Positions 22,606 through 44,748 of a stretch of DNA of 64,000 nucleotides are shown in pieces. How positions within the stretch are numbered: position 1 is the first letter of the stretch; each line of letters starts with the position of its first letter. This stretch comes from Vermamoeba vermiformis (lineage: Eukaryota): assembly GCA_045837725.1 (NCBI GenBank), contig JBEWZL010000076.1, forward strand, positions 434,001 through 498,000, read 5' to 3'. The notes under the pieces were generated by a model. That model saw only the letters and a list, made by a program, of their open reading frames with translations. It was not told where the DNA came from and made no database searches. Made by a program: the position numbers and the translations under genes.

Positions 22606-23382
22606 TTACTTAAGGTTGGCAGAGGCGAACTCCCAATTGACGAGGTGCCAGAAAGCTTCGAGGTACTTGGCGCGGTCGTTGCGGTAGTCGATGTAGTAAG
22701 CGTGTTCTGAGATGGAACAAAAGTAAATCCGAGGTGTTCTCAAAGCGAGCTAATAAATGCGTAGAATATTATAGTACATACCCCAAACGTCGCAAGTCAA
22801 AACGGGGGTCTTGCCTTGAGTGAGAGGGTTGCCTGCATCGTGAGCACCAACAATTTCGAGCTTGTTGTTGTCGTCGCGAACCAACCAAACCCAACCAGAT
22901 CCGAAGTGGTTGATGGCCTCTTCTTGGAACTTCTTCTTGAACTCATCGAAGGAGCCGAAAGAAGCATTGATCGCATCAGCAATCTTGCCAGAAGGAGCAT
23001 TGCCACCCTTAGGGCTCAATGACTTCCAGTAGAAAGTGTGGTTCCAGATCTGTGGTGGTGTATTTGTAAGTACAATATTCAATAGGAGAGATTTCTATTG
23101 ATATTTAATTTTTTTGTCGCGTAATAATTATTTTTAGATCTGCACTCAAAGATACGCAGACTAAGTACATACTTGAGCAGCATTGTTGAACACCTTGCCA
23201 GACTCAGTCTTGACGAGCTCTTCAAGCGACTTTTGAGCGAGAGGAGTGTCAGCCACGAGACCATTGAGCTTGGTGACGTAGCCTTGGTGGTGCTTGCCGT
23301 AGTGGAATTCGAGCGTCTCTTGGCTGATGTGAGGGGCGAGCGCGTTCTTTTCGTAGGGGAGAGGTTCCAACTTGAAAGCCAT
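22606..23382 (-). CDS. Iron superoxide dismutase without a targeting peptide
   Basis: [64 protein letters not shown] is the Fe-type signature. Confidence 0.93.
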
Positions 23383-23693
23383 TTGTGTTTGCGTGTTTGG
23401 TAAGATAAAAAATGAATGAAAAACTTTTTGACCAAGACGAAGATATCTCGGAGAATTTTTTGTGGCCCTGGTCGATGGAGAGCAGCAAGTGTGCGTGTTC
23501 AAGCACGATCGAGGGCTTATTCGGTGGTGTCGGGAAGCATAGGATAATATTTCAGCCAAAAATCGAGCCCACAAATAAGTCCGATCGAAGGTTCTAGATG
23601 CACTCACGAGACACGGCGCAGTGCTTCGAGTCAATGGCACTAGAGGCAAGGAGTATCTACAAGCAGCAGTGTTTACTAATAATACAAGCTATG

Positions 23694-26600
23694 CTACAGA
23701 CTGCTGTGCCAGGCGCGATAACTCTCTGTGACTGCACGTGTCGCGTCACGTGTCAGTTCTTCCAGGGCAGTGACACGTGTCTGCAGCGCACTCGTCACTT
23801 CGTTGGTCTCCGAGGCTGAATTGATCACTGTGCAAGAGGGATGAGATACACGATCATTACCAAATAAGGCAAGTGACTTACATTGTTTCATGGAAAAGTA
23901 GATCTGATCGCACTCCTCGCGCAACATGCGACGCAGTTCATAGTGCAGCTCGAGCAACACGAGTGCAGTTCTGACACGTGTCAACTAGCGGTACACACGA
24001 TCAGTCACGTGACTACAAACAGCTGCAAACAAGTACGTACCTCATCGCGCGTGAGTCCGCAGCTGGGACAGAGCCAGTGGTGCGTGCTGAGGGGCAGCTG
24101 TGACATGGCCGGCACGACACAGTGCGTGTGGTACTGCTCTTGACACGCGTGACACTTGAGCAACTCTTGGGGGAAGCTCACTGGGCCTGTCACGTGCTGC
24201 ACTTGAACACTTGTGGCACGTGATCTGCAAATGACGCATGCCACCGCAGGATCTACATCATTCTCAATGGACTGCGTGGTGTCCAAGGACTGCGTGATAG
24301 GTGTCAACTCCGCACTCGCAGTGACAGGAGCCTCTTTGACAGGTGTCTCTTTGACAGGTGTCTCTTTGACAGGTGTCTTGGTGTCAGTAACGGGAGCCTC
24401 TTTGACAGGTGTCTCTTTGACAGGAGCCTCTTTGACAGGTGTCTCTTTGACAAGTCCCTCCAAGTCGCGCATCATCTCTTCAGTGAATGCCTCGTCAGGC
24501 AAGAAGTCATCGTCGTTGAACACGCGCCGTTGAGTGGCAGCACGTGGCAGGGTGCGACGTCGTTTGTTGGGCGAGATGTCCTCTGCTGTCACCTCGTGCT
24601 GTCTCTTGCGCGAGGGACTGCTGCTATTATTAGCTCCATCCTCCACGTTGTTGTTGCGCGGGGGACTGTTGTTGATGTTGACGTTGTTATTACTATATTT
24701 GGTGTTGCTGTCACTCTCCATCGGCTGATTGAGATCGATCATGTGTGACACGTCATCGGTCATCTCTTCTCGTGCAGACTCGTGTTTGACAGGTGTCACT
24801 TTCTCTTCTTTGTCCTTCATCACCACATCTGCAGTGCTATTGAGTGTGCTCGGAGCTATTTTTAGTCGCAGTGCTGGCCACGACATTGGTGTTGTTCTCT
24901 GCGTGGGTGGTGTTTGCATGGTTGTTCGTGTGGTTGTTGTTATTCTCTTCATTCATCGGTCCATTGCTGTTGTTGTTGTGAGTGCGCTCCTCCTTCGTCT
25001 CCGCGTCCTGGTCGCTGCTGTGATCGTACAGCGGCTTGAACTCCCCGCCACTGCTCGCCAGCACCAACTTCTCCAAGTGGTACGCCTGATCGCGCGTGAT
25101 TCGGAAGTTGGTGCCGATCGGTGCGCGCAGAATGGTGATCTGTGCCAGGGCGGGGTTGGCGCGCACTGTGGCCTTGTCAATGCGTGTCGGCAGCACATAG
25201 TCCACGTGCACGTGACAGCGCAGCTCTTTCTTGGCACCGAGATTGGTGTCGTGCGTGTACTTGGCCATGGCAGCCAGCTCGTCAATCTCTGCGGGCTCAC
25301 TGGTGACACTGCCCACAGCGAGCACACCAGCCTGCTTGCCCGACTCCCAGATGAACACCTTGTCGCCGAGGTGTATCTTGCCCGTCTGCTGCTTGACCAG
25401 CCACGTCATGTCACTCAGCTCTTTGAGACTCGTTTCAATGTCGTAGTACTCGGGATTGGCTTGGAACACCCAGTACCGCGCTGCTCCTGCCTCGTACCCG
25501 TCGTTGACACTCCCCTGCACGGGTGGCACTTTGACACGCACGCGAGTGGCACTGGGCGAGGGCAGTTCAGTGGGCTCATCGAGCAGCGCGCGCTTCTTCT
25601 TATGCGCGTATTCTTTCTTGTACGCATCGCCTTCACTCTTGCGGCGCTTCAGTGCTGGTGCTGGTTTGACAGGTGTCACGGGTGTTGACAGCTCTTCATC
25701 TGCAAAGCTGACACGGCGCTGTTTTTTGCTCAGTTTTTTCTGTGAGTGAGTTTTGGGTGTCTTTTTCACTGAATCACGCTGCACTCGGTCCACGGCAGCG
25801 ACGCACGCGTGAATGTGGTGCGTGAAGTGTGCGCGCAGTGCGTCGAGAGTGCGTTCAGTGGGCCGAATGCGCTGTGTGAATATCGATCGATCGGGCACAG
25901 GAATGCGCGACAAATCTACGCTGGCACCTGGCAACAACTCAACTGCTGCGTGCAAGAGACACGTGACGCAGTACTGTTGCAAGTGTCGCAGCTGTGAGTA
26001 GGTGACGCGCGCAGAGTGCAGCAGTTGCGTGGCAGACTCGTGCAGTGCGAGCACAGGGGGCTGTTTGAGCGGCATCCAGGGCTGCAAGGAGTGCGGTGTG
26101 CTGTGCTGACGACAGAGCGGCACTGAGGCAGCGAGCAGCGAGAACTGTGCCAGCACCCAGTGCTTGTGTATCACACTGCGCGGTGCGGTGCTGCGCTGCG
26201 TGGAGTTGAGCACAAAGGTGAGGGGAATGAGCGGCACCACGCGCGCCTCGGTGCTGTCACTGGTGTCAGCGGATGAGGGCGCGACAGTGTTGGACTCGGC
26301 ACGTGACGCGGCGTTGGTGCTGTTCGGTGCCACCAGACCACGTGACTGCGCGCACGAGGGACAGAACCAGTCGCCCTCAGGCACTGCAGTGAGTGGCGTG
26401 GGCAAGCAGTACATGTGATAGCCACCATCGCAGCCATCGCACAGCAACATCTTGTCGTCATCTGAGGCACTGTCGCACAGCTCGCACTTCATCTTGATCA
26501 CCGAGGCACACATGGGCGAGCAGAACCACTCGTTGGGGATGCGTGACATGGGAGGATCGAGGCACTTGAGGTGATAGGCGCGGTCACAGCACGTGCAGAA

Positions 26601-28113
26601 CACCATGCGCTTGTTGTCACGTGGCTGCTGGCACAGACCACAGATCACTTCCATCGACTGCACTGTCACGTGATGTTCGTCCAGCACACCGCCGCTGCGC
26701 ACATAAGCGGACTGCAGGGCTGGGGGCAGTTTGGCGCGACACATGAGCTGCAGCACAGGTCAGTCACGCACTATGGCTAGCCATGCACAGCACTTACCTT
26801 GGAGATCACGGGCCACTCTGCACCGTACACCGCGAGCAGTGCGCGCACCCAATCGAGTTCGATCTTGCTCCAGCGGTGCGGGTGGAAGAACTTGCTGACA
26901 CGTGTCACTTTGTCACTCGGCAACACCCCGGCACTGTTGGCGCGGCGCAGCGAGGGCTCAGCGTGCTTGCGGCGCGGCATTTTGTCTTGAAAGAGCGGCG
27001 GCTCCACCTCCATCTCAATCGGATCCGTGTCGTACACAATGTACTCGGCTTGGTAGGCGCTCCAGTACAGATCTGTCTGCACGGGGTCGTAGCCGAGGTA
27101 CGAGTCCGGGTACTTGCAGCTAATGTCGCGGTACGAGGGCACTGCGAGCTCGTCGTTGCGGTGCGGTGCAAACTTGTTGTCGAAGGTGACGAGCTGCTCC
27201 TCGTCTTCGAGCGTCAGGGCGCGCAGTGCTTCGGCGTGCAGGGCCTTGTCTGTCACGTCGTAGTCCACCAAGTGCTTCTCGTCCACCACGTACTCGCGCG
27301 GGGGATTGAAGAGATTGGCGCTGATGAGGTGCTGCATCTTGATGTGCTTGGCTTGTTGTTCGGGCGTGCGGCGCGTGGACAGGAAGAAGCGGCGATTGAT
27401 CCGCGCTTGTTCGATCTTCTCGCGCAACTCGCGTGTGGCCTTGCGCTCAAACTCCTCGAGGGTGACGCGCTCTCTGATGCTGCGAATGTAACTGCGCGGG
27501 CACGAGTCAGATCTCGATCTGGTTGTAGCGGGGGACTTACCTTCGCTCTTCATCACTGTCGGCACTGTCGTCGCTGTCGATCACTTCTTGACGTTGAAAT
27601 GGTCGCCACTGAATACGAGCAATGTGTTAGTAATGGCTCTGTAACCTGCATCTGAGTGCCCGCCAAAATGACAGCAGCGGATGTGCCTTGCAACGCACTG
27701 ATCGCTCTCAGCGCCTTTGATTATAATGCACATACCTTGCCAAAGCTTCTTTTATGTTTCTTTTTCTTCTTGCGCTCTTGTTCGCTCTGATCGTGCGTGC
27801 CATTGCCGAGTGGATGGGCCGTGGTGTTGCTGGTGGCAGTCGCGTGGAGACTAGTGCTCGTACTTGCTATGGAGGTCTGCTTTGATGAGCTGCTCGTTGA
27901 GACCTCGTCGCTGCTCTCTTCAATTTTCTTGGGCGATCTATTTTTATTTTTGTTTTTACTCGCAGCGCTCTTATTATTCGCAGTCGTATTCTCGTTATCA
28001 GCGACATAGCCACTAGTCTCTATATTATTTTTATTATTCTTCTTGTCCGCTGATGGCTTCTTATGCATCTGCGCTTTCTTCGCGTTGGCTTGCTTCTTCT
28101 TGCTGTCCGACAT
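23694..28113 (-). CDS. Large chromatin-reader protein: SANT-like - PHD - PHD - EVE - TPVK repeats - PHD; multi-exon, with a frame break near 24860
   Basis: SANT-like RWSKIELDWVRALLAVYGAEWPVISK; two C4HC3 PHDs (~26355-26645); EVE-like YWVFQANPEYYD...W......IHLGDKVFIWESG..GVLAVG.V...GTNF (~25063-25475); third PHD (~24058-24240). GT-AG introns join the other ORF pieces. Confidence 0.8.
24322..24453. repeat. 15-bp coding tandem repeat (VKETP/VKEAP) inside the PHD-EVE gene
   Basis: Repeated unit tttgacaggwgyctc, about 7-8 copies in two blocks. Confidence 0.9.
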
Positions 28114-28293
28114 GCTGCCGTGCGTGTGATTCAGACAGCAGTATATTTAACTAACACTACTAGGTGCGTGCAGTGCTCATGTCCTCACGCACAAATCAAC
28201 GACTGCGCAGATCTAGCTCGTTATTCGCATTTGGCTCCTTGCAAGCACACAGGAGCGCTCTATACATACACTGGTCCTAGTCTCACGCACACT

Positions 28294-41647: not shown

Positions 41648-42527
41648 ATGCAGACAGTAGATCGCACTCGCTTTCACGCCGAACAGACCACGATCGCACC
41701 CAAACTGAAGGCAGTGCGCGTCACCGACAAACGGCGTGATGACCGCGCAGCGAATCAATTTCGACCGATATGTAAGTGCCTAGTCGTGGTTATTATGCTA
41801 GTACTCGTATTGATCGCCATGCTAGTCACACGCACAGGGGTGGTCAGTCACGCAGCTGGATCTGCTTATTTAGAAGTGAACCACACCAAGCTCATCTGTT
41901 CCATGTACGCACCAATAGATAACAATACAAGACTAGCATTATTAATATTATATATGCAGCTATGGTCCTCGGCCAGCCACAGGACTCGACTACGCAGATC
42001 GAGGTCTGTTGCACTGCGAAGTCAAGTACGCGAGCTGGGCCAGTGCGCAGCGCGGTCAAGCACGTCAATACGAGAAAGAGGAGCGCGCACTGGCCTCTAC
42101 ACTCGAGAAGTGCTTTCACATGGCCATTGATCTGGATCGCTATCCCAAGTCCATCATCGACATCAATCTCTTGGTGCTTGAAGATGACGGTGCAGTACTC
42201 GCGCATGCCATCAATGCGACCAGCTTGGCGCTAGTTGATGCCACCATTCACTTGTTCGATCTGGTCACTGCCTCGTCTGTAGGCTATTTACACAACAAAT
42301 TGCTGTTGGATCCAGACCACGAAGAAGAGAGTCAACTGAGCGGCAGTCTGACACTCGCCTACATGACTGCAGTACAACGTGTTGCGCAAGTCGAGCAGAG
42401 TGGAGAGCTTCAGATTGATGTAGTTGTTCAAGGAACCAAGTTATGCATTGATGGCGCTATTCAAGCCCACGCATTGTTTTCAAAACACTTAAAAGAGCAC
42501 ATCAAAAATAAACGGCCAGCAAGCTAA
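41648..42527 (+). CDS. EXOSC6: Exosome RNase PH-like subunit, most like Mtr3
   Basis: RRDDR....FRP, GSAYLE, KLICS.YGP, YPKSIIDINLLVLEDDG, INATSLAL. Confidence 0.75.
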
Positions 42528-42649
42528 TTGTAGAGTTTTTGGCTTTTAATCAGTCTTGTTGTTGAGAAGGATTTAGTTACAGACAGATCTTGGGTATTTT
42601 TGATAATCCTATCATAAACTACGCAGTAATAACATTAATTTTCAACCAA

Positions 42650-44590
42650 TGGCACTGCTTTAGAACTAAAACGATAGCCCAATTTACACCAAGTCTTGTC
42701 TTTTTTTGGTCACATCCTTCCAACAAGTTAGGGGTTTTTTGCTGATTAGAGATGGATTTGTACATTGTTGAAACCTTTCAAAGGGCTCTGGCTTGAATAG
42801 ATTATCATATTTGCCCCCTGAGAGCTGGCCCTGCGTAGTAGAATTCAGAGAAAAGAGAGTTCTACACAGATCAATGCCTGCTTTTGAGGTCAACCTGTCC
42901 TAAGATGTAGTGGTCCATGGCATTCGTTTGGGGTAGGTGACAGCAGAATCGCCTTGGAGGTCGACCTGTCCTATTAAGACATGGTGTCCGTCCAGGGACG
43001 AGGAGTCTGCTGACGTTAGTAATTGATGAAATTTAATTCTGCTGCTGCAGTAGGCAGAGCATATACAGAATACTAGTAGGTACGAGCTTTGCATCTGTAT
43101 CAGCTTCTGGCCACTGGAGATTGAGAAAGAATTGTAATCACCATACATTGGAAAGTTGGATATTTCAGCGTAATGGTAGCATCTGTAGAGCAAATAACAT
43201 CTTCGCAACCAGGATATGTATGCTGCCAAAAGAACAGTTAACATCCTACCCAAAAATCGTCTCCCATTTAAGCCTGGTAAATATGCACTTCTGCAACTAT
43301 ACCAGAAATGGAATATTGTGAATGAGAGTATCTCATAATAAAGTGCAAATGTAGACTCTTTCTATTGAACTCTGACATGTCCACTACATTGTAAACGATT
43401 TCATATGTCATGCCAAGCTGCAGTTATCAAAATCTTTGTTACTCGAGACTTTTGGAAGGAGATTTGAAATACTAAGGAACTTTCCTCAACTCAATTCCTA
43501 GAGGTTGGCTAGCAAGGAAACCAACTCATTAAAATATTTGCATCCACTACAATTTGGTGCTATTGGCTTTTTATTCCATGAGAACCTAGTGACGGCAGAC
43601 GCTGTCCAGTCCGGACACCCTGTCCAAATTGGACACCCTGCTCAACTTGTGCAGGACAACCTCCCTAGGCAAAGAATCCCTGTCACAAGGTTCATGGAGG
43701 CCAGACCAAACGGACAGATAGACGAGAAATTTTTTAGTGCTGGACATTTGTCCATCCAGGGTTGCTGCATCCGCTGATGTTAGTAATTGACCAACTTCTA
43801 CCAAACTCTGCCATTAGCATCAGTGGACCCAAGAAGCACTACTATTGGCATCAGGAGGCTTTGGGCTAAACGCCAGAGGCTGAAAATGGCAATGTTCTGC
43901 AAAGAACTTAAGTACTAGAATTTTGTTCTATTGGCTGCAATATCATTTAAAGTTTGGAATTACCTAGACCTATCACTGTATAACAAGAAAATATAAGTAA
44001 TCATCAAAGATATTGTAGTGACAGCAATTTGTAAATTTTCAGCATTAAGTATGAACCCACCCACCAGCACATATTTGGTACAACACAACTATACGTATTT
44101 TATGCAACACTGAACTTTGGCTACAATACATTGTCACCTAGCTATGCAAAAATTTTTGAATCATCCATACTTTTTTATGTTGTAACTTTGTCCAGCTGGT
44201 GGCAGACCTTGTTATAATGAAGGGATATGCTTAATCATATGGTGGCAAACCTTTTTATAATGAAGGGATTAGGTTAATCTTACATTGCATAAAGATACCT
44301 TGTGAAAATCTTCATACTGTATGATATATGGTTGGTGGACGTGCCGTCATGGTGGATGTCCAAGGAGGTGTTGGGGTCTGCCAGGCCAAAAAGCAGCTGC
44401 TGGCATTCACAACGGAATAAGATTGGCAGTGTGGGCAGTCATCCACCTACATGGCCTAGCAAACCTCCATTTCCTAACAGCCTCCACCAGAGTACTGCCC
44501 AGTGTCCATAGAGCAAAACGTATTTTCGAGAGACAATGATTCATTAACTATTCTTTGTTGCTTTAAGGTGACCCCGACTTTAACCTGCCA
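42650..44590. other. Gene-free, CpG-depleted island with short internal repeats (probable transposon or foreign DNA relic)
   Basis: About 28 CpG in 42661-44580 by hand count; no recognisable protein; diverged duplicate at 42886/42957, GGACA/TGTCC cluster at 43604-43760, 43-bp tandem at 44197-44279. Confidence 0.6.
44197..44279. repeat. Two-copy 43-bp tandem duplication
   Basis: tggtggcagaccttgttataatgaagggat... followed by tggtggcaaacctttttataatgaagggat... Confidence 0.85.
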
Positions 44591-44748
44591 AAATAAGTAG
44601 TAAGTGCACGAGGCAATAAACCATGAATTTACTTACTTATCGTTTGTCATTTTAAATGATTAAGTGATAAATCGTTGCTTAGCCTGTTGTTTTGATCATT
44701 CATGAGCCAGTTCAGTCACTCTCACCGAAGCATTGAACACCACGCGTC

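Follow-up and report, generated by a model that had tools for sequence, protein, structure and literature searches.

On the minus strand of a 64,000-nucleotide (64-kb) stretch of the Vermamoeba vermiformis genome (GenBank assembly GCA_045837725.1, contig JBEWZL010000076.1, positions 434,001 to 498,000; this whole stretch is the window) lies a gene in which PHD fingers are joined to an EVE domain of the kind that in bacteria accompanies McrB-type modification-dependent restriction enzymes. The gene product, of about 1359 amino acids (aa), would be a non-catalytic chromatin reader with a logic like that of UHRF1, pairing a modified DNA base, probably 5-methylcytosine (5mC) or 5-hydroxymethylcytosine (5hmC), with the tail of histone H3. 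Both ligands and the output are what we infer, and we give this proposal about an even chance of being correct.

The core of the architecture is contained in a single stop-to-stop open reading frame (ORF) of 640 aa (24837..26759; this and all gene features below are on the minus strand), which holds the sequence quoted in the original prediction of a PHD-EVE fusion. A hidden Markov model search bears out the claim that two PHD fingers and an EVE domain share this uninterrupted frame, Pfam PHD (PF00628) being matched in two stretches (E 5.3e-21, 74.8 bits) and Pfam EVE (PF01878) over residues 428-564 at 25068..25478 (E 1.8e-12, 47.9 bits against a cut-off of 23, profile positions 1-144 of 145). 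Scores of this size lie well outside what chance would produce. The EVE domains of the orthologues are likewise above the Pfam cut-off. The anticipated PUA-like fold is recovered when the EVE segment is modelled with AlphaFold2 (AF2) from 21 aligned sequences, the model having a predicted local distance difference test score (pLDDT) of 91.6 and a predicted template modelling score (pTM) of 0.88. When this model is compared by Foldseek with the Protein Data Bank (PDB), ranks 1-10 are all taken by EVE-type structures (2ar1, 2gbs, 2eve, 5j3e, 1zce, 2g2x, 2p5d, 3eop and 1wmm; template modelling scores 0.53-0.70), one of which, 5j3e, is human THYN1 with 5mC DNA. Rank 11 is the EVE-HNH enzyme VcaM4I, followed by ASCH domains and, from rank 16, YTH domains, and identity in these structural alignments is low throughout (12-20%).

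One question then is to which branch of the EVE family the domain belongs. By its sequence relationships it is a member of the McrB-associated subfamily, distinct from the THYN1 type, and the surmise that its W-x-F-Q-x-N-P start is bacterial and restriction-associated is thereby upheld. A profile made from the EVE regions of the window protein, P0002 and P0003 (profile A1), searched exhaustively against 1.84 billion representatives, matched 2608 proteins at E<=1e-3 and 1185 at E<=1e-10. The best 150 of the 2608 share the start W-I/V-F-Q-x-N-P, barring a few N-terminally truncated fragments such as P0079 and P0118. Pfam families were scanned in 127 of these best 150 matches (P0004-P0130, with P0131-P0151 outside the scan): McrB-type modules (MrcB_N and/or AAA_5) occur on 63, other partners, mostly of restriction type, on nine (HNH twice, SAD_SRA, Mrr_N, GmrSD_N with Mrr_N, NOV_C, MTaX1, nSTAND3 and AAA_16) and PHD fingers on eight, while 46 show EVE only and one shows nothing. 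In P0013 the AAA_5 part matches Escherichia coli McrB at E 1.2e-44. P0004 was considered as an exceptionally close bacterial-type relative (E 8.8e-76) and was dropped, its score being the sum of two EVE copies. This protein of 1735 aa carries two MrcB_N and two EVE copies of the McrB-type subfamily in one chain, so that two different base readers have been duplicated together.

The distance from the THYN1 type is apparent from several searches. A broader profile of 21 sequences (A2) reaches canonical Y-W-L-x-K-S-E-P EVEs weakly in the PDB (2ar1 at 1.5e-5, 2g2x at 8e-4, 2gbs at 1.2e-3), and human THYN1 is reached there by neither A1 nor A2 at E<=10. A PDB search with the single EVE sequence gave one chance match only (E 1.2), and profile A1 gave none. 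In a language-model atlas the nearest clusters are bacterial stand-alone EVEs; the EVE segment matched no family in PADLOC or NCBIfam, and a search of a viral structure library yielded no close match (20% identity at best), no giant-virus counterpart of the subfamily and no sign of a viral vector. At the level of residues, three Trp, a Phe, a Gln and two Gly that 91-100% of 139 bacterial-type rows retain are also present in 12-13 of the 13 eukaryotic rows, and from this conservation between bacteria and eukaryotes it may be argued that the protein continues to use the ancestral ligand site. With bacterial-type EVEs (P0021, P0019, P0013) the window EVE shares up to 44% identity, no less than the 38-45% that it shares with the EVEs of distant amoebozoan orthologues.

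The histone-reading side of the protein rests on three fingers. PHD finger 1 occupies ORF residues 40-84 (26508..26642), with PHDvar_NSD matching residues 40-77, and PHD finger 2 occupies residues 92-136 (26352..26486), covering the whole Pfam profile (positions 1-47 of 47). The third finger, foreseen downstream, is found in ORF 24005..24952 (E 2.9e-6, 27.7 bits against a cut-off of 24); it is atypical, with an insert (24059..24244), and PHD_4 also matches over residues 237-298 of that ORF. The fingers follow the Cys4-His-Cys3 pattern, and none of the Cys/His columns varies among the 11 orthologues aligned. Among solved structures the tandem PHD1-PHD2 segment matches best BAZ2B (5.4e-16), then the first PHD fingers of KDM5B (6.6e-16) and of Lid; further matches are the PHD pairs of MLL3 and KMT2D, KDM5A PHD1, ATXR5, BAZ2A, the double PHD of DPF3, UHRF1 PHD (about 1e-12), CHD4, AIRE and PHF21A. 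In sequence PHD2 is closest to the fingers of BAZ2, KDM5 PHD1, UHRF1 and AIRE. The solved fingers that match PHD1-PHD2 are, as we take it, fingers that read an H3 tail on which K4 or R2 carries no methyl group.

Upstream of the fingers the original prediction had placed a SANT-like exon. The upstream ORF (26777..27580) has no Pfam match at E<=0.1, and the segment in question (26688..26884), which is split by a 50-nucleotide (nt) intron at 26748-26797, may be called SANT/Myb-like by its position alone, through its positional homology to orthologue segments. At the aligned position the Pfam family Myb_DNA-binding passes its cut-off of 24.4 bits in P0008 (26.0) and P0167 (25.1) and falls below it in P0170 (22.3) and P0003 (16.9), and in P0158 there is no match to this family at E<=0.05.

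The gene as a whole was reconstructed from spliced contigs together with one predicted intron, giving six exons. The region 23900-28250 was covered with the RNA-seq runs X21 and X23, the DNA run X1 and the spliced-contig run X5. Contigs of X5 skip four GT..AG introns, at 27609-27735 (127 nt), 27492-27540 (49 nt), 26748-26797 (50 nt) and 23985-24040 (56 nt), the last of which is also skipped in six RNA reads of X21 and five of X23. Contigs and reads cover the EVE region, and since no splice joint falls within 24041-26747 the EVE domain is not spliced out, a fate that would have undone the prediction. A further GT..AG intron of 54 nt at 23828-23881 is predicted from its ends and from the junction sequence of orthologue P0158. 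Raw RNA reads over 23900-28250 are few, 22 in X21 and 49 in X23, and mostly only 90-95% identical to the window; they amount to low-level expression only and come probably from a diverged strain. The species label common to X21, X23 and the best DNA run, X1, seems to span diverged strains or species.

In this model exon 1 (27736..28113) begins with the start codon at 28113-28111 and encodes an N-terminus rich in Lys, Ser and Asn, the same as in P0158. Exon 2 (27541..27608) is a stretch of only 68 nt encoding acidic residues, both flanking introns of which are skipped by an X5 contig, the frame being continuous in the spliced translation. Exon 3 (26798..27491), with its joints seen, carries a conserved N-terminal region, which aligns with the N-terminal regions of the orthologues, and the first part of the SANT/Myb-like segment. 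The large exon 4 (24041..26747) holds PHD1, PHD2, a helical middle, EVE, a low-complexity region and PHD3, and the last exons (23694..23984) encode a C-terminal helical tail and the stop codon at 23694-23696. The middle region (25560..26312) is conserved in blocks in an 11-sequence alignment, belongs to no Pfam family and is predicted to be helical. When the 546 aa spanning PHD1 to EVE are modelled together by AF2, the PHD and EVE parts are confident, the helices of the middle region have pLDDT below 50 and the whole model has a pTM of 0.36. The linker before PHD3 includes a 15-nt tandem repeat of about nine copies (24322..24460), encoding a five-residue unit of Pro, Val, Lys and Glu. Its copy number differs in a public protein from a near-identical strain, P0001, and the depth of the X1 contig spikes there.

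P0001 is 99% identical to the window protein; at 906 aa it starts at PHD1. As modelled, it is without the three upstream exons, and it runs into intron 23985-24040 and so is without the C-terminal helix. The orthologue P0158 (1347 aa), on the other hand, matches our gene model end to end, from the first residues to the C-terminal helix.

That PHD3 appears in a separate frame is due to four extra nucleotides in the window at 24841 (24841-24844; the affected stretch is 24837..24844), which bring a TAG at 24837-24839 into frame and would truncate the protein after EVE. The four nucleotides are absent from the X1 DNA contig (depth 374.7 of 374.7) and from the X5 spliced contig (20.2 of 20.2), and the relatives P0001, P0002 and P0158 read straight through into PHD3. 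Once they are left out exon 4 is a single frame, and the spliced frame comprises 1377 open codons, beginning with the ATG at 28113 and ending at the 23694 stop. The difference is probably an assembly or polishing error, or else a strain difference. As a link to PHD3, an intron with GT..AG ends that would remove the stop at 24837 was also weighed and rejected, since the obvious candidate is 56 nt long and of the wrong phase and the reads show the 4-nt difference.

How widely is this architecture distributed? A word-indexed homologue search found three proteins, with P0002 (81%) and P0003 (53%) as relatives. PHD-EVE proteins were found in five named species, Echinamoeba exundans, Thecamoeba quadrilineata, Nematostelium gracile, Soliformovum irregulare and Phalansterium solitarium, which we take to belong to Tubulinea, Discosea and Variosea. 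Every named member among the matches listed is amoebozoan, the other members coming from metagenomes or run assemblies. The architecture is therefore lineage-specific, as had been suggested, in the sense of the Amoebozoa, over which it is spread; it is not private to this organism. The order SANT-like segment, PHD, PHD, middle region, EVE, one or more PHDs and C-terminal helix is common to the 11-sequence alignment, and in the longer isoform of the P. solitarium protein (P0168) EVE is followed by two PHDs.

The relationships among these EVE domains were examined in two quick, unrooted trees with support from the Shimodaira-Hasegawa-like approximate likelihood ratio test (SH-aLRT), one of 152 rows under LG+G4 and one of 52 rows under LG+C20. 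In the former, 11 PHD-EVE rows, a Phalansterium fragment and a fragment of 192 aa form one clade (SH-aLRT 92), which adjoins P0014 (of Mrr_N/AAA type) and P0016 (MrcB_N, EVE and AAA_5). In the latter, 12 eukaryotic rows form one clade (SH-aLRT 83) that is sister to P0014 and P0016 together (SH-aLRT 90), and within it the three members that we assign to Variosea group together. According to PMC7641849, EVE-McrB is the commonest EVE defence architecture and is present in nearly 300 prokaryotic genera. The most economical account, as far as sequences can tell, would be a single transfer from a bacterium to an amoebozoan followed by vertical descent, for the eukaryotic proteins form one small clade inside a large set with prokaryotic defence architectures, and EVE-McrB is found in so many genera. 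Contamination is excluded because the PHD-EVE gene is surrounded in the window by typical eukaryotic housekeeping genes, namely those for a kinase, WD40 proteins, Vps54, a DEAD helicase, an Fe/Mn superoxide dismutase, an E2 acyltransferase, RNase PH, RPL5 and a rhomboid protein. The superoxide dismutase gene (22750-23688, minus strand) lies directly downstream of the PHD-EVE gene, tail to head, leaving a very short spacer after the stop at 23694.

Several known systems invite comparison. With EVE-McrB, the type IV GTPases of bacteria and archaea, the window protein has in common the sequence motif at the start of EVE, its Trp/Phe/Gln/Gly core, the degree of identity given above and profile scores of 105-150 bits. 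It differs from them in its intron-bearing eukaryotic gene, in the position of EVE between PHD fingers and in being without AAA+ GTPase, MrcB_N and nuclease; by Pfam, no AAA_5, HNH or other catalytic family is found in the 640-aa exon or in the orthologues, which sets it apart from the McrB and other type IV enzymes. The EVE-HNH endonucleases (TspA15I, VcaM4I, CmeDI) likewise use EVE as a sensor of DNA modification, and two EVE-HNH proteins, P0061 and P0100, fall within the subfamily of the window protein. VcaM4I itself is distant (16% identity in the structural comparison), and the preference for 5hmC/5mC is a property of the EVE-HNH group (PMC6765204).

On the eukaryotic side, THYN1/Thy28 belongs to the same Pfam family and fold, both 5j3e and 3eop being among the top ten structural matches. 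It is, however, a stand-alone protein with an EVE of the Y-W-L-x-K-S-E-P type (the motif seen in 2ar1 and 2g2x) and is 12% identical in the structural alignment, whereas the window protein is multidomain and is not a THYN1 orthologue. BAZ2A/BAZ2B and KDM5 PHD1 provide the best sequence matches of PHD2 (E 5e-16 to 4e-15); in those proteins the PHD is paired with TAM/MBD-bromo or JmjC modules and not with EVE. UHRF1, composed of SRA, PHD, tandem Tudor and RING, resembles the window protein in uniting a PUA-like base reader and a PHD finger in one chain. The base reader of the window protein is an EVE and not an SRA, and the assembly is an independent one; the resemblance is in logic only. By Pfam, no SRA, UBL, Tudor or RING is present in the window protein, which places it outside the UHRF1 family, and since no UBL, Tudor or RING was detected it has no known enzymatic output.

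Upon this framework of observed architecture, splicing, fold, subfamily, conservation and distribution a mechanism can be proposed. An EVE domain would have been taken from the bacterial subfamily serving as the specificity module of McrB-type modification-dependent restriction enzymes and fused into a PHD-finger protein in an amoebozoan ancestor, yielding a nuclear chromatin reader. The conserved, Trp-rich core of EVE would accommodate a flipped-out modified base, 5mC or 5hmC being the most probable, while the PHD pair would bind, on the same nucleosome or on one beside it, an H3 N-terminal tail unmethylated at K4, such that the protein would dwell only where both marks coincide. The modified base and unmethylated H3K4 would coincide at silent, cytosine-methylated chromatin, and the SANT-like segment, the coiled-coil parts and the C-terminal helix would recruit partners. 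We favour a bivalent reader of this kind because a base reader derived from modification-sensing enzymes sits beside histone-tail readers and no catalytic domain is present. For EVE-HNH enzymes a preference for 5hmC/5mC DNA has been shown, along with a conserved pocket in EVE into which a flipped base fits (PMC6765204); since the EVE-HNH enzymes studied represent a different EVE subgroup, these bases are candidates for the window EVE.

Several considerations weigh against this proposal. Neither a solved structure (in the PDB at E<=10, where profiles A1 and A2 miss VcaM4I as well as THYN1) nor a characterised enzyme was found within the McrB-type EVE subfamily; because the profiles reach neither of these two proteins, the base preference assigned to EVE is an extrapolation. 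Moreover, many bacterial relatives pair EVE with MrcB_N, itself a 5mC reader, and EVE could accordingly read something else. The specificity suggested for the PHD fingers derives from their nearest solved relatives and from the ligands of these, support for the PHD-EVE clade is moderate, and the trees being unrooted, the direction of transfer would follow from distribution.

Lastly, the window as a whole is not depleted in CpG, its observed/expected ratio (o/e) being 1.06. The original prediction had taken a CpG-depleted island as a hint of a 5mC substrate, and one such island does exist, a non-coding stretch of 2.1 kb at 42.5-44.6 kb with a CpG o/e of 0.35 and TpG/CpA ratios of 1.28/1.29; it is narrow and single, four other AT-rich stretches having values of 1.09-1.39. 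The island (42500-44600) contains no long ORF and short imperfect repeats only, and may be a methylated repeat relic. Its composition fits local deamination of 5mC and, as a single locus, gives a hint of it.

The same architecture would also accommodate an EVE that reads N6-methyladenine (6mA) in DNA, of the ApT type laid down by AMT1, which would make the protein an amoebozoan 6mA reader. The PUA-like fold is known to read N6-methyladenosine (m6A) also, and the YTH entries appear among the structural matches, though outranked by EVE structures. No Acanthamoeba member was seen among the named matches listed, and PHD2 resembles fingers that we take to be readers of unmethylated H3K4. The last point tells against 6mA since that mark co-localises with trimethylated H3K4 (PMC12695648). 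In its favour, 6mA is robust in the amoebozoan Acanthamoeba castellanii, where its readers are stated to be unknown (PMC12695648), and a PUA-superfamily HNH enzyme from another clade is stimulated by 6mA (PMC6765204). On balance we regard a 6mA reader as unlikely. Somewhat less likely is that the base is read in RNA, whether 5-methylcytidine (m5C), m6A or one of the tRNA type, which would connect the state of the histones with RNA that is nascent or bound to chromatin. RNA binding was the role first attributed to EVE and PUA domains, proteobacterial EVEs have been proposed to bind m5C in tRNA (PMC6765204, PMC7641849), and YTH domains are structural neighbours of the EVE model; the closest sequence relatives of the window EVE are, however, specificity modules of DNA restriction (McrB-type, HNH, GmrSD, Mrr_N) and not stand-alone housekeeping EVEs.

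It might also be that EVE has lost its discrimination of modified bases and is now a general nucleic-acid-binding or purely structural module in a PHD scaffold, as could be implied by four otherwise conserved positions at which the eukaryotic sequences have substitutions of their own (fragment positions 24, 55, 78 and 95). The retention of the most conserved bacterial residues in nearly every eukaryotic row speaks against this, and EVE is conserved to the same degree between amoebozoans and bacteria as among distant amoebozoans, which argues for a retained specific function; we consider such a loss improbable. Still more improbable, in our estimation, is that the protein detects modified DNA of foreign origin, brought in by giant viruses or by bacteria that the amoeba has ingested, and directs silencing, keeping the non-self logic of type IV restriction instead of reading the epigenome of the host. 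Amoebae are hosts to giant viruses with methylated DNA, and the restriction-derived origin of EVE would suit such a role. By Pfam, however, no nuclease or NTPase is attached, the viral structure library offers no close counterpart, the gene is single-copy in a housekeeping neighbourhood, and both the vertical-looking phylogeny and the conserved domain order would rather suit a core chromatin role. A wider formulation, that a restriction specificity domain was domesticated once in early Amoebozoa as a nuclear reader, with three PHD fingers, of a mark without a known eukaryotic reader, be it AMT1-type 6mA or the DNA methylation of invading giant viruses or bacteria, is in our judgement about as unlikely as the 6mA reader alone.

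The bivalent reader of cytosine modification and H3 that we favour would belong to known kinds, those of combined readers of DNA and histone marks and of domesticated restriction modules, while the PHD-EVE combination itself appears to be new. The original prediction knew of no description of it, and none was found in the main texts of the papers searched. According to the main survey of EVE domains, the EVE proteins of eukaryotes resemble THYN1, some fusions in fungi aside, and the word PHD does not occur in that survey (PMC7641849); in the part available of PMC4738411 EVE is mentioned only as a 5hmC binder. Both 5mC and 6mA occur in an amoebozoan, for which the search for readers has been named the key open step (PMC12695648).

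With the PHD-EVE protein there is a definite candidate, and one that can be cloned, for a reader of DNA methylation in Amoebozoa. Readers joining a mark on a DNA base to one on a histone, such as UHRF1, are central to epigenetic inheritance, and to our knowledge few are known outside animals and plants. Here the base-reading task would be performed by a different PUA-like module, of bacterial restriction type, set between PHD fingers and kept across several of what we take to be amoebozoan classes, which would make the protein a clear example of how eukaryotic chromatin has recruited a specificity domain from a defence system. For the McrB-type EVE subfamily, with its more than two and a half thousand matches, it would be the first tractable, non-toxic member for ligand studies.

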